A DNA stretch of 64,000 nucleotides from a virus. The translations under genes were made by a program, and so were the position numbers. Of the stretch, positions 26,001 through 30,617 are shown piece by piece (the stretch's first letter is position 1; every line of letters starts with the position of its first letter). Under the pieces are notes generated by a model that was not told where the DNA came from, ran no database searches, and was given only the letters and a program-made list of their open reading frames with translations. The stretch lies in the IMG/VR virus record IMGVR_UViG_3300027987_000509. One strand, written 5' to 3'.

Positions 26001-26676
26001 TGGGTTGTTGGTTGGCGGCGACCGACCGAACGATTAGATACCCCATCCAAGAAAGCAACGACTGTTCCAGATTGTAGGTCTGGTGAATCCGCTGCAAGCC
26101 GTTGTAGATGACGTCCAACTGGTTTGCATAAGCGTTTTGCGATTGTAGCAGAGTTCTGACCCTCTCTCGTACGGCTCCCATCAGCACGTTGCGTCTCGGT
26201 TCGGTCCTGTGTGTGACTGTTCCAACCGGCGTGACGATTCTCACTGATGATAGGTCTGGTTGAGCCACGACGTCGTGATTGAGACGCAAGTAGACACCCT
26301 CGAGACATTTGAGTTCTTCTAGGGCGTTGAGAAGTAACTTACTGAATGTCGCAATGTAGTCGTCTTCATGGGCTCCTTGGACTTTTCTTTGCAGCCATTC
26401 AGTCATGCATGCTTCGAGGACGGCGTCTACGTCGAAGCCGGGCCACCATTTGGTTCTTGAAAGCTGCAAGATACTCGCTGCCTCGATTGGGTACAGCTCA
26501 TTGCAGTGTCGCATTCCTTCGAGAACGACCGGATGTTCTTGAAGAGCGAGATTGATGTGCATCATCGCTCGTTCGTAGTCGGATTTCGTGAATTTTTGGC
26601 GTCTCGATGTTGATCCGGATGCTGTCGCCCAGTAGTTGCGATCGATCGGTACGTACTTAGTATCGAATTCATTCAC
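25924..26676 (-). CDS. Hypothetical protein
   Basis: 250-aa ORF with AGGAG RBS. Confidence 0.7.
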   Translation of the reverse strand: MNEFDTKYVPIDRNYWATASGSTSRRQKFTKSDYERAMMHINLALQEHPVVLEGMRHCNELYPIEAASILQLSRTKWWPGFDVDAVLEACMTEWLQRKVQGAHEDDYIATFSKLLLNALEELKCLEGVYLRLNHDVVAQPDLSSVRIVTPVGTVTHRTEPRRNVLMGAVRERVRTLLQSQNAYANQLDVIYNGLQRIHQTYNLEQSLLSWMGYLIVRSVAANQQPIITENQLLIAQQQPRIEAPNPNSQP

Positions 26677-26705
26677 GTGAAACTCCTTTCTGGAATTTAT
26701 ATATC

Positions 26706-27179
26706 ATGGGAGATTACGCCAAGATCGGTGACAAGATCGAAGAACCGAGACCGTCCGTATTTGAGCTTGTAATCGAGGACCACGTTCCATTTGTCAACCC
26801 GGCCGATTTCGGTCTAACCGATATTCAGGGCATCAATCCAGCCGATTACTACATCACCAGCGGCGACGCGGTTGAAAAGGCAAAAGTCCTCGAGAAGGAA
26901 CTCTGGAAATACGCCGGGGACCTAAGAAGAAGGTCCTATGAAATCGTCGCTGAGGAAAATGCCTGCACACCTCTTGAAGCACAAGCCCTGTTCAGGGCCG
27001 GGACACGTCCGCAAGCCCCATCTGGCTTCTCCGAATACGAAGCCGCTGTGTGGAAGGCAGCTGGCTCTGCTCGTAAGATGCGGAACGCTCTTGAAAAAGC
27101 CAAAGGTGTTGATTGCTTCCTTGAGACGGAATGGGACAATCATCAACTACTCTGTATACCAAAGAATCCGAGGAAATAA
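26706..27179 (+). CDS. Hypothetical protein
   Basis: 157-aa ORF coupled to tmk. Confidence 0.7.
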   Translation: MGDYAKIGDKIEEPRPSVFELVIEDHVPFVNPADFGLTDIQGINPADYYITSGDAVEKAKVLEKELWKYAGDLRRRSYEIVAEENACTPLEAQALFRAGTRPQAPSGFSEYEAAVWKAAGSARKMRNALEKAKGVDCFLETEWDNHQLLCIPKNPRK

Positions 27180-27904
27180 TGCAAGGAATCTATGTCATAT
27201 TCGAAGGCTCAGACGGAGCTGGGAAGACTTCGACAATGAGAGCTGTGGCCGAGGCTGTTCGGCCATTGCTCTTAGAGGCAGGGCTACCGTCTGATCACAA
27301 AATTCACCTGACCCATCACCCTGGAAGCACGCCACTCGGCAAACATCTCAGAACCCTCGTCAAACAACCGGAGACCATCGACCCGACTATCGAAATCGAC
27401 CCAATGTCACGGCAGATGCTCTACATGGTCGATTGTGTCAGCTTTGCAAAATCCATCCTTGAACCCGCTGTCGAAAAGGGCGAATTTGTGTTCGCCGATC
27501 GCTCGGTGCTCATCAGTGCAATCGCTTATGGTTGTGCCGAAGGAATGAGTATTGATGAGATTCAGCGGATGTTCTCGATTTACGAACCACCGAAGGCAGA
27601 CCGCCTCTATGTGTTGCGGTGCCCGTGGGAGATCGCAAAAGAGAGGATGCTTCAAAGTCGAGGGGAGAAGGTCAAACTCGACTACTTCGACAGGAAGCCG
27701 GATGGTTTCTTCGACAAGATTGTCGAGATCTATGACAACTTGCTGACAGGTCCTCCGGAACGGATGGTCACGGTCAGCAGATCCGTTGCCTTGAACAACG
27801 TGATCTACATTGATGCCACTCAACCTATCGACAGAGTGGTTGAGGACATCCTAACTGATTTCCGATCTGTGCTGAGGCGTCACGTTTCAGCCTTCTCGGA
27901 ATAG
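27179..27904 (+). CDS. tmk: Thymidylate (dTMP) kinase
   Basis: IFEGSDGAGKTS P-loop, HPGSTPLGKHLR, VFADRS..SAIAYG. Confidence 0.9.
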   Translation: MQGIYVIFEGSDGAGKTSTMRAVAEAVRPLLLEAGLPSDHKIHLTHHPGSTPLGKHLRTLVKQPETIDPTIEIDPMSRQMLYMVDCVSFAKSILEPAVEKGEFVFADRSVLISAIAYGCAEGMSIDEIQRMFSIYEPPKADRLYVLRCPWEIAKERMLQSRGEKVKLDYFDRKPDGFFDKIVEIYDNLLTGPPERMVTVSRSVALNNVIYIDATQPIDRVVEDILTDFRSVLRRHVSAFSE

Positions 27905-28186
27905 ATGAATCAACGCTGACAACCAGCTACGTATTGGTCGCCGAGGCTTAACGTCTTCTTCATCTGTTTCTGGTGCTACAACTCGCAGCTTCATTTTTTC
28001 AAGACGTTGGCGAGCGACGGTATCATCGACGTTGAGAGCGACGGCCTCAATCACCTGCAGTCCTTTTTGGCGAAGGGTGAGAGCTAAATGTTGAAAACTT
28101 CGAGCCTTTTCTCGACCCTCAATGATCTTGAGGTCAGAGTCATAGGCCCGATACTCGAATTGTTGGAAGGGAGTTTTACTTTTCAT
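27887..28186 (-). CDS. Stand-alone protein resembling the N-terminal cytoplasmic domain of PilC/GspF
   Basis: FEYRAYDSDLKIIEGREKARSFQHLALTLRQKGLQVIEAV matches F.Y.A.D..G....G...A.S......LR..GL; no TM helices. Confidence 0.55.
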   Translation of the reverse strand: MKSKTPFQQFEYRAYDSDLKIIEGREKARSFQHLALTLRQKGLQVIEAVALNVDDTVARQRLEKMKLRVVAPETDEEDVKPRRPIRSWLSALIHLFREG

Positions 28187-28256
28187 GACGGATCGACTTG
28201 CCAATTGCACCACCACTCGCCGAGGACTCGATCATGTTCTCGTCAGTCTGGAAGTG

Positions 28257-28667
28257 ATGCTCAAGCATGAACATGCCAAACTCCCGTTCAGAAAACGTGA
28301 AACTGATGCCGGGTACGACATCTACTCTGTCGAACAAATAACGCTCATGCCCAATCGGGCAACCATCGTCCACACCGGCATTCATATTGCAGCTCCGCCC
28401 GGCTTCTATTATACTATCGAAGGCCGGTCGAGTTTGTGGATGAAAGGAATTTTCCCCAATCGTGGAATTATCGACGCTACTTACACAGGAGAAGTAGTAG
28501 TGTCACTGGTTAATGTCAACGAGGGACCATTCAACGTTGGCATCGGCGATAGAATTGCACAGATCATCCTGCATCGTCAATACGATGCTGATTTCAAAGT
28601 AGTGGAGGAGTTCAGCCCGTGCTTTAATGAGCGTGGAACGGACGGATTTGGCAGCAGTGGCAAGTAG
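28257..28667 (+). CDS. dut: dUTP diphosphatase (trimeric dUTPase)
   Basis: DAGYDI, GRSS, GIIDATYTGE, GDRIAQ, ERGTDGFGSSG. Confidence 0.95.
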   Translation: MLKHEHAKLPFRKRETDAGYDIYSVEQITLMPNRATIVHTGIHIAAPPGFYYTIEGRSSLWMKGIFPNRGIIDATYTGEVVVSLVNVNEGPFNVGIGDRIAQIILHRQYDADFKVVEEFSPCFNERGTDGFGSSGK

Positions 28668-28684
28668 CCTCCTGGAGAATAATT

Positions 28685-29029
28685 GTGACGGAGTACGAAA
28701 CATCGGGAGTACTACTCGCGAGGAGAAGCCAAATGGAGAAATTCGTTGTCGCATACGCGAAAATTATCACAGATAAAGAAGATGGGGTGTCGCTCGCCGG
28801 AGTTTTCTTCGGCGGGCTCGGTGATACGGTCGATGAAGCCAACGCACTCGCAAAAGACTGCGTCAATACCATCAGAGGAGGAACGATCCTGCCACGGGTC
28901 CTACCGATCGAAGGTGACGGCCAGCTTCTTGAGGCAATGTTCGACGCAACCGACAAGTTCGAACAAGTGACGGCTTACATGATCGAGGCGAACGAAATCA
29001 TTACCAGAACACAGAATCTTAAGAAATGA
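28685..29029 (+). CDS. Hypothetical protein
   Basis: 114-aa ORF, GGAG RBS. Confidence 0.65.
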   Translation: MTEYETSGVLLARRSQMEKFVVAYAKIITDKEDGVSLAGVFFGGLGDTVDEANALAKDCVNTIRGGTILPRVLPIEGDGQLLEAMFDATDKFEQVTAYMIEANEIITRTQNLKK

Positions 29030-29334
29030 TCTGGTTCAGTCAGGAATTCGCACTCGCCGGACAACCGCAAGACGCCACCGTTCGTCTTGAGGGTACCTAT
29101 AACGCACCAGACACCAATCTGCCTCGAATTCTGGTTCGCCTCTACGTCGGTAATCAAGACGATACAATCATTGTCAGAAATCTCTTCGAGAAAAATCCGG
29201 CCATGCTCAGGTACCAAGAGCCGGAATCAGATGATGTCTACGAGAAATATCAGCACAACGTACAAAAGCTGATAAGCAAAATCGATGGTATGAACTACGA
29301 AGAACTGGTTTCGTGGTGCAGTACCCCTGCTTAA
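29026..29334 (+). CDS. Hypothetical protein
   Basis: ATGA overlap with upstream stop. Confidence 0.65.
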   Translation: MIWFSQEFALAGQPQDATVRLEGTYNAPDTNLPRILVRLYVGNQDDTIIVRNLFEKNPAMLRYQEPESDDVYEKYQHNVQKLISKIDGMNYEELVSWCSTPA

Positions 29335-29354
29335 GTTCCTGCGGTGTATTCTGA

Positions 29355-29362
29355 CAAATATA
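29355..29362 (+). promoter_or_regulatory. Late-promoter-like motif CAAATATA, 4 nt before ATG
   Basis: Recurrent motif and spacing. Confidence 0.5.
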
Positions 29363-29366
29363 CCGT

Positions 29367-29831
29367 ATGAAACTCAGACTCATTGCGGAATCCCACGCGG
29401 ATCGGATATCCCGAGAGCAGTCGGCCAAGAATCTTGTCGTGACCTCGCTCATCAAGGTCAGGAACATGCTTGGGCCGATGGGTCTGACAAAACGCCCAAT
29501 CCAGAAGCACAGGGTAGTAGAACCAATCGGCGACCCAGGTGTATTCAGGGCATTCAACTCACTGCGAGAAGTCGTTCGTGCCCGTGCCCAACGCGATGCT
29601 CGTAGTATTCTGAACGGCGAAAATGCCGAGCGGATCGGCGAGTTTTGGGGATTTCAAGTCCCAACTGGCTGGTACGACGTCCATGCGGGCCAAATGGGAC
29701 GACCGACTGCAACAGGTGCATTCGATAATATGATTCGAAACACCGTAGAGCAAGCAGCTGGCCTTGAAAACGATGAGGCCGGTCTCGCTACCAAGGCCGA
29801 ACTGCTAAATCAGCTCGCAAGCCAGATCTAA
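29367..29831 (+). CDS. Probable internal head protein
   Basis: N-terminus MKLRLIAE|S; late-like promoter. Confidence 0.7.
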   Translation: MKLRLIAESHADRISREQSAKNLVVTSLIKVRNMLGPMGLTKRPIQKHRVVEPIGDPGVFRAFNSLREVVRARAQRDARSILNGENAERIGEFWGFQVPTGWYDVHAGQMGRPTATGAFDNMIRNTVEQAAGLENDEAGLATKAELLNQLASQI

Positions 29832-30175
29832 GAATCGTCCACGTGGGTAATAAGCCTGAAGTCGGCCAACACGTCGACAATCCTCTTGGTGAAACTGGCA
29901 AAATCTGGCTCCGCGATGTCTGGGACAACCGCTTCTTGGAGCAAATCCTTGTAGGCCATTGGTCCGCCAGCCCACATTACTCGAACACCGGTATTTGGCG
30001 GTGGTGCTCCGATGTTGAAGAGGACCAGAATCAGTTCACCATCAACGCCGACTTCCAATGCTTGTGAGTAGTCGAGATATGAGCAGTCCACGTGCTCAGA
30101 ACCGATTTTGCATCGGTACTTCTCACTAAGCACCTCGAACAGGTGCTGCCGGACTGCTTTGTTGATGATGTCCAT
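29828..30175 (-). CDS. Hypothetical protein
   Basis: 115-aa ORF, GGAGGGG RBS. Confidence 0.6.
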   Translation of the reverse strand: MDIINKAVRQHLFEVLSEKYRCKIGSEHVDCSYLDYSQALEVGVDGELILVLFNIGAPPPNTGVRVMWAGGPMAYKDLLQEAVVPDIAEPDFASFTKRIVDVLADFRLITHVDDS

Positions 30176-30617
30176 CTATAGACCCCTCCACGTCCTTGTT
30201 GCCAGTCTCTTCATCTTCGTAAATTGGAGCGTAGATTTCGAGCTTGTAAGTCGGCTTCACAATGCCCGGTAAATCCAATTCGAGCGAATCTTCGCTTTTC
30301 TCGTTGGTTCGGCCTTCTTGAGTCAGCTGGCCATCCCGGTATAACTTCCACCGATAGCCAGGAGCTGGTTTGCCTTTATGCTTGACAGTGAGGGCACCTT
30401 CCCAACCGAGCATAGCACCAGGTGGCGTAGGTTGCTTCATACCAACCAGCGGGCGTCTACGAAGCTTCCTATCGATTTCGATGAAGACTTCGTTGACTGC
30501 TTCTTTGTGGATTTGGTATTGGGACTTGCTTATGCTGTCTTTGCATTCAAATACAAATTCGGCGGCAAGTTCATACGTCAGATCGTTCGAACTTCCGCCG
30601 CTTTGTGAAAAGGGCAT
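30126..30617 (-). CDS. Hypothetical protein
   Basis: 163-aa ORF in minus-strand run. Confidence 0.6.
   Translation of the reverse strand: MPFSQSGGSSNDLTYELAAEFVFECKDSISKSQYQIHKEAVNEVFIEIDRKLRRRPLVGMKQPTPPGAMLGWEGALTVKHKGKPAPGYRWKLYRDGQLTQEGRTNEKSEDSLELDLPGIVKPTYKLEIYAPIYEDEETGNKDVEGSIDGHHQQSSPAAPVRGA

Follow-up and report, generated by a model that had tools for sequence, protein, structure and literature searches.

Type IV filament machines have at their core a platform protein, GspF/PilC, that is poorly understood, its N-terminal domain least of all. In Klebsiella PulF this domain (residues 1 to about 54) is folded as beta-beta-alpha-beta and is peripheral and mobile, being carried on a flexible loop; it does not co-evolve with the rest of the protein, and stability and oligomerisation of PulF are independent of it (PMC10790770). 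PulF works without it, but endopilus assembly and secretion reach full efficiency only when it is present. The N-domains of P. aeruginosa PilC and N. meningitidis PilG are described as non-essential in the same way, and losing PilT suppresses the piliation defect that a mutation in the PilG N-domain causes (PMC10790770). The Cyt1 and Cyt2 domains of the platform protein are credited with contacting the motor ATPase (PMC10790770, PMC10191384, bioRxiv 10.1101/2025.10.14.680967), and partners of the N-domain are, according to the PulF authors, still to be identified (PMC10790770).

That phages can block pili had been stated in a preliminary description of the present locus, and for type IV pili it is well documented: Tip of phage D3112 and Aqs1 of DMS3 act on PilB, PfsE of Pf4 acts on PilC, and Zip belongs to the same group (PMC11656802, PMC8764522). 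Like the protein considered here these are small phage proteins; their targets lie in the cytoplasmic or inner-membrane motor of the pilus, and PfsE is itself membrane-associated. Unlike it, none of them has been reported as a copy of a machine component, and all come from Pseudomonas phages, temperate or filamentous, in which they are accessory genes, whereas the gene described below looks like a core gene. They form a functional class, marked by binding to PilB, PilC or PilZ with loss of piliation or twitching, and not a sequence family. No sequence relation between our protein and the phage pilus inhibitors was found in PHROGs, and we came across no published account of a platform N-domain carried by a phage.

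The new element is a stand-alone, phage-borne and probably membrane-tethered variant of the known T2SSF_N domain. It is encoded in a 64,000-nt stretch (the window) of a 146-kb IMG/VR record that is 41% complete according to CheckV and carries the label of a provirus. The features of the locus are as follows.

27887..28186, minus strand: coding sequence of the stand-alone T2SSF_N-domain protein (P0001), 99 aa plus stop, from the open reading frame and its translation.
28034..28165, minus strand: N-domain, residues 8-51, beta-beta-alpha-beta, from the AF2 model, hhalign, PF28597, NCBIfam and Atlas matches.
27980..28030, minus strand: conserved helix, residues 53-69, with the motif LAxxRLxKMKxR, from the model helix and the conservation in the family alignment.
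27935..27979, minus strand: variable acidic Pro-rich linker, residues 70-84, pLDDT 53-65, lacking secondary structure, pI 4.5.
27896..27934, minus strand: C-terminal cationic amphipathic helix, residues 85-97, with a putative role in membrane targeting, from the model helix and the properties of the family tails.
27131..27904, plus strand: tmk (thymidylate kinase), convergent neighbour, PF02223 at E 2.8e-17 and phrog_761.
28185..28667, plus strand: dut (dUTPase), divergent neighbour, PF00692 at E 2.4e-29.

The 280 nt between tmk and dut are filled by an antisense gene. At its 3' end it runs 18 nt into the tmk stop region, and its ATG has 2 nt in common with the ATG that comes first in the dut frame, within a TCATGA palindrome. 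We place its start at the ATG at 28186 and not at the upstream GTG at 28216, which would give a protein of 109 aa, because homologues begin 2-9 residues before the first strand. Alignment with relatives puts the likely start of tmk at the ATG at 27179. Since the dUTPase domain begins only at residue 30 of the dut frame, the real start of dut may be the ATG at 28257.

The open reading frame is a real, conserved phage gene. A word-index search returned four homologues of 97-99 aa with 52-57% identity to P0001, and phmmer against 1.84 billion representatives found 48 clusters (50% identity) at E <= 1e-3, nearly all of 70-126 aa. Three long phmmer matches, P0017, P0019 and P0052, were taken as spurious; they contain LRR, Calx-beta or other repeats and have no platform features. 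Word-index searches with P0001 and with the 50-sequence family alignment (A2) gave no longer, fused relatives, which is weak evidence, as the E-values are set for 5.8 billion proteins; DNA and protein searches of the INPHARED phage collection gave no match.

Neither a sigma-70-like promoter nor an intrinsic terminator was found in 26500-30200, no Shine-Dalgarno sequence is recognisable for the gene, and comparison of the upstream regions of four relatives revealed neither a conserved motif nor a copy of a late-promoter-like octamer. The missing signals, together with a start that lies inside or abuts dut, are what one would quote for a chance antisense frame in a spacer. This explanation is barely credible: the protein-level conservation across the clusters, in which the domain core is invariant and the linker varies, already refutes it, and the confident AF2 fold and significant profile matches described below point the same way.

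The first approximately 50 residues of P0001 are a homologue of the N-domain of the GspF/PilC platform, the resemblance being much greater than chance would give. The precomputed Pfam call for the protein, as for its relatives P0007, P0010 and P0034, is PF28597, which the ESM Atlas names T2SSF_N, type II secretion system protein F N-terminal domain (Pfam 38.1). The comparison with the PilC N-terminus that the preliminary description had proposed was made by hhalign between A2 and the N-termini of 19 full-length GspF/PilC proteins gathered from related genomes; it gave a probability of 96.2% and E 2.3e-9, with residues 9-51 of P0001 lying on platform residues 2-44 (43 columns). Among 185,579 species genomes a pattern scan picked out two Verrucomicrobiae loci, where the match is formed by the first 40 residues of a full-length GspF/PilC protein of 401 aa, and BLASTP of P0001 against one Verrucomicrobial PilC gave 38% identity over 40 residues (E 7e-7). 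When the A2 profile was run over 201 Verrucomicrobiota genomes, 30 contained matches, with per-genome E-values down to 1e-6, nearly all at the start of open frames of 400-500 aa; the ten that were checked are all GspF/PilC homologues and belong to diverse paralogue groups. Below the cut-off but in the correct register, positions 1-44 of the NCBIfam GspF model match P0001 at E 0.008, and one relative matches the NCBIfam PilC and XpsF models at position 1, likewise sub-threshold. Shape agrees with sequence: both family sets reported for the 30 nearest models in the Atlas search are T2SSF_N, and one of these matches has an rmsd of 1.8 A over 57 residues. Neither the protein alone nor the family profile had a significant match in local Pfam (in a version lacking the PF28597 model), PHROGs or PDB sequences, and no solved T2SSF_N structure was found in the PDB for comparison.

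These results bear out the stand-alone PilC/GspF N-terminal pattern that had first been noticed from the sequence alone, and equally the statement that the membrane-embedded T2SSF domains are absent. T2SSF (PF00482) has no match in P0001 at E <= 1 in local Pfam, and the C-terminal half shows no similarity to PilC residues 45-125 by hhalign. The remainder of the platform protein is absent, and P0001 is not a member of the full GspF/PilC family. We also considered that the gene might be a 5' fragment of pilC, its C-terminal helix being the first T2SSF helix, and rejected this after hhalign of the C-terminal half against PilC 1-125 found nothing. A single PilC paralogue as donor was rejected as well: the best-matching cellular N-domains sit in platform proteins that are only 20-34% identical to one another.

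The AF2 model built on A2 consists of strands 8-15, 21-28 and 44-51 and helix 31-40, in the order E-E-H-E, with pLDDT of 94-97 over residues 11-50; for residues 8-51 of P0001 the model is confident (pLDDT about 95). Helix 53-69 is predicted at pLDDT 67-76, and helix 85-97 lies beyond a disordered stretch. The family follows the same plan, with a conserved N-terminal half, the LAxxRLxKMKxR helix, a linker free in length and sequence, and a terminal helix. Conservation is strong in the N-terminal half: R39 is invariant, and the figure is at least 90% at each of the positions Y12, A14, G24, F31, L38, Q40, Q44 and A48; R13 is, with R39, a conserved arginine of the family. The helix at 53-69 aligns also in the distant L070 homologue. 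P0001 thus shares with the platform N-domain profile homology, the beta-beta-alpha-beta fold, the extreme N-terminal position and, probably, a flexible attachment to something located at the membrane. It differs in standing alone, with neither the Cyt1/Cyt2 T2SSF domains nor the three-TM core, in being encoded by a phage, and in having its own C-terminal amphipathic helix or tail anchor as a putative tether.

Over the last 25 residues of the 50 family members the mean best hydrophobic moment is 0.66 and the mean net charge +3.9; W, F, L, I, R and K abound in these tails, whose sequence drifts freely. Within residues 85-97 of P0001, I85, W88, L89, L92, I93 and F96 lie on one face. Two homologues, P0053 (Kyte-Doolittle 2.8) and the L070 ORF (3.2), have a hydrophobic tail of TM grade instead of the amphipathic helix. 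Such an exchange of amphipathic helix and tail anchor is expected if the conserved role of this end is membrane attachment, and P0001 is probably tethered to the membrane. MinD and FtsA carry C-terminal membrane-targeting amphipathic helices whose sequence is free to vary while their physical character is kept. These helices resemble that of P0001 in being short, cationic, aromatic-rich and placed behind a flexible linker; they belong to a different protein family, and membrane binding by the P0001 helix is a prediction. The L070 homologue with its TM-grade tail, from the 364-kb phage, was found via tmk, independently of the small gene.

The preliminary description spoke of a gene inserted antisense between tmk and dut. 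The antisense position is correct, but the word inserted is misleading. The order of tmk, antisense gene and dut is kept in 8/8 relatives examined, down to about 30-35% identity (loci: P0002 contig, L004, L005/L006, L007-L009, the 408-kb contig with P0034, L058 and the 364-kb genome), and the gene is therefore neither a recent insertion nor a moron. The 408-kb and 364-kb genomes, both rated 100% complete, came from a search of IMG/VR with a Tmk alignment, which makes the synteny test non-circular; in the 364-kb genome an antisense ORF of 119 aa occupies the tmk-dut gap and is a match to A2 (hhalign 92.4%, E 5e-7). Searches for viral-contig relatives with A1 or with the single Tmk protein found none. 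A phage tail gene is present also on L007-L009. Besides eight tRNAs and a tmRNA, the 146-kb record encodes a clamp loader of T4 type, a head protease, an HNH protein and a tail-fibre-like protein. The gene looks like an old core member of the tmk-dut block in a T4-like jumbo clade of about 350-400 kb, and an old, fixed gene in a jumbo phage clade makes the provirus label doubtful.

Unvarying synteny with tmk and dut in all of these relatives could also mean that the protein is a membrane-tethered accessory which organises or regulates Tmk, dUTPase or a dNTP-synthesis complex, and this would explain its frozen position. We regard such a role as very unlikely. The whole block is syntenic, including the flanking 157-aa and roughly 100-aa genes, so that position alone carries little weight, and overlapping a gene on either side would already make rearrangement difficult. 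Lying on the opposite strand, the gene is not co-transcribed with its neighbours, and we know of no dNTP enzyme with such a domain.

A second use of the domain, in a filament machine of the phage itself, is not open to it. T2SSE and T2SSF are absent from the 146-kb record and from the two complete relatives, so the P0001 domain cannot serve a phage-borne machine; the pilin N_methyl motif is absent from the 146-kb record too. We tentatively put forward, as a reading that is quite possible but may well prove wrong, that a membrane-tethered free N-domain takes up the docking site used by the N-domains of the host platform, and that pilus or endopilus assembly is lowered or biased as a result. The cationic amphipathic helix at the C-terminus would bind the cytoplasmic face of the inner membrane, with a hydrophobic tail anchor taking its place in some relatives, and the flexible linker would let the N-domain swing just beneath the membrane, like the native domain at the periphery of the platform trimer. 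Many free copies made during infection might then vie with the N-domains that belong to the host platform for the docking partner of the latter, so that the efficiency of pilus or endopilus assembly would be lowered or the balance between extension and retraction tipped. The pay-off could be depiliation, which would exclude other pilus-dependent phages or stop progeny from adsorbing to infected cells, or it could be the shut-down of a costly envelope machine.

Several observations speak for such competition. The homology to the platform N-domain in 48 clusters of like size and domain plan supports it, as does the lack of a phage-borne type IV filament machine for the domain to serve. Since the tether would put the free domain at its native site, it too fits a competitor, and so, by analogy, does the precedent of phage proteins acting on the pilus motor (PMC11656802, PMC8764522). 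The earlier suggestion of a decoy is close to this proposal and stands in part: the stand-alone N-domain, the pilus-blocking precedent and a predicted tether remain on its side. Its premise, given there as established, that cytoplasmic PilC regions engage the motor ATPases does not cover the N-domain, because the literature assigns this contact to Cyt1/Cyt2 (PMC10790770, PMC10191384), and a core gene does not have the status of a moron for superinfection exclusion. Core status counts against our own proposal as well. A core syntenic gene in apparently lytic T4-like jumbo phages from varied samples is not what the known blockers, all accessory genes, would lead one to expect. A pure competitor may moreover have a mild effect, because deletion of the N-domain only weakens the machine (PMC10790770). 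Two points taken up below count against it too: some residues are near-invariant in the phage family but not in the cellular set compared, and the small fold recurs, though by weak matches, in phage inhibitors that have unrelated targets. Prediction of a complex of V. cholerae EpsE, EpsL(1-250) and EpsF(1-60), aimed at the partner of the native N-domain, gave a score of 0.27, below the 0.34 mark, and speaks neither for nor against binding. The wider statement, that T4-like phages of 350-400 kb use, throughout a clade, a tethered copy of a platform N-domain to disarm or re-wire the host's type IV pilus or T2SS, is in our opinion conceivable but rather improbable.

The same target might be approached without inhibition. 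A free N-domain could dock on the host T4P/T2SS platform in order to mark the machine or the cell pole as the place for a phage process, or to re-tune the machine in the phage's favour, for instance by keeping pili or secretion active. In cis, the N-domain raises efficiency and does not act as a brake (PMC10790770), and conservation as a core gene suggests a role in every infection, both of which would suit this idea. No phage precedent for it is known, though, no partner protein was identified in the phage, and P0001 has no second domain to deliver; we consider it unlikely.

Whatever its use, a phage family has cut out exactly the N-domain, added its own predicted membrane tether and kept the product through deep divergence. 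P0001 is a natural, soluble and over-expressible probe for the partner of the N-domain. Should the wider statement on the phage clade prove true, this would be the first phage effector that mimics a piece of a pilus or secretion machine, and its partner would reveal the function of the GspF/PilC N-domain. As an inhibitor, it would make self-domain mimicry a new principle in phage control of pili and secretion, and it would mean that investment in this control extends beyond temperate phages to large lytic ones.

It is also possible, although on the unlikely side, that the fold has been exapted, so that a descendant of the platform N-domain now binds an unrelated host target which the tail localises or sequesters. 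The top PDB matches of P0001 include YkzG/RNAP epsilon, p56-UDG complexes, Gp2 and Dmd, all of them weak: VIA-align gives Z 4.0 for Gp2, Z 3.5 for Dmd and Z 3.0 for p56, and Foldseek E-values are 0.1-0.2. The shape recurs in BFVD, in many phage proteins that are small and uncharacterised and in a putative RNAP inhibitor. Gp2, YkzG, p56 and Dmd share with P0001 a similar size and arrangement, and several of them are phage inhibitors that occupy the surface of a host protein, T7 Gp2 acting on RNA polymerase, phi29 p56 on uracil-DNA glycosylase and T4 Dmd on toxins. Core-gene status speaks for exaptation, and a place beside dut would suit an inhibitor of uracil repair. The structural matches, all at Z < 5 and Foldseek E >= 0.1, stay below the level that would indicate more than a common arrangement, and kinship at the sequence level is to T2SSF_N only, with no sequence similarity to Gp2, YkzG, p56 or Dmd. 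Whereas Gp2 is characterised by a key Arg on its sheet and p56, an acidic protein, by a DNA-mimic face, P0001 has an extra helix, a linker and a putative membrane tail, and its N-domain is basic (pI 9.6), a charge that makes a p56-like DNA mimic unlikely. The N-domain of PulF itself matches Gp2 and YkzG (PMC10790770), which shows that these matches reflect a common small fold and nothing specific to P0001. If the domain has nevertheless been exapted, it would be a further example of a tiny beta-beta-alpha-beta inhibitor fold, this time with a traceable cellular origin. Some residues distinguish the phage family from the cellular domains: G19, 95% conserved in the cellular set, is missing from P0001, and the phage family shows a near-invariance at F31, Q40, Q44 and A48 that the cellular set compared lacks, a difference that could reflect a changed partner.

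The small gene, a free-standing T2SSF_N-domain protein of 99 aa, and the dut frame (28185-28667, plus strand) meet at their starts, within a TCATGA palindrome.

Window 28184-28257: the small gene's start codon overlaps the first ATG in the dut frame

The dUTPase domain itself begins at residue 30 of the dut frame, and a second ATG of this frame lies at 28257; were it the start, the two genes would be separated by a divergent spacer of 70 nt. A search for promoter-like or SD-like signals of the small gene found none.

Two features of neighbouring genes were noted in the large relatives of this phage.

L056:8883-9986 (locus in the 408-kb phage): dUTPase gene, 367-aa product as called
L070:1585-2415 (locus in the 364-kb phage): 276-aa ORF with a DPPY motif, immediately upstream of tmk

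The dUTPase product of the 408-kb phage is more than twice the usual size and presumably carries a fused extra domain. The DPPY motif, as judged by eye, is typical of N6-adenine DNA methyltransferases; the same position upstream of tmk in the window holds no counterpart of this ORF. Both relatives are complete linear phage genomes, and the gene content is T4-like. The IMG/VR entry lists the 146-kb phage record (G000) as a provirus with a completeness of 41%; given these relatives and this content, that label is probably artefactual.

Outside the window, the record carries a cluster of RNA genes.

G000:C1:141644-145552 (window coordinates ~108100-112050): eight tRNA genes and a tmRNA

The tRNA types are His, Ser (two), Met (three) and Lys (two), and the tmRNA encodes the tag peptide AKHSFAMAA, which might be of use in a search for the host.

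Among cellular platform proteins, the one closest to the phage family by its N-terminal pattern (MQFEYRAYNSN...) comes from a Verrucomicrobiae MAG.

L002:3781-7739 (contig CAWJFL010000016.1): orphan platform paralogue

Its neighbours are a response regulator and a hybrid histidine kinase of 737 aa, with no ATPase flanking it. Platform paralogues number five in this genome, which also gives at least ten matches to T2SSE-type ATPases. In the ESM Atlas, several clusters whose 'T2SSF_N domain-containing' members are 61-152 aa long bear bacterial labels (Hydrogenedentota, Pseudomonadota, Thermodesulfobacteriota and Verrucomicrobiota). Such proteins may be genuine free N-domains, but they may also stem from genes cut off at the end of a contig or from phage contigs binned wrongly. 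A cluster of 105 aa, labelled mainly Verrucomicrobiota, is similar in shape to the phage family, and this likeness gives a weak hint as to the host.
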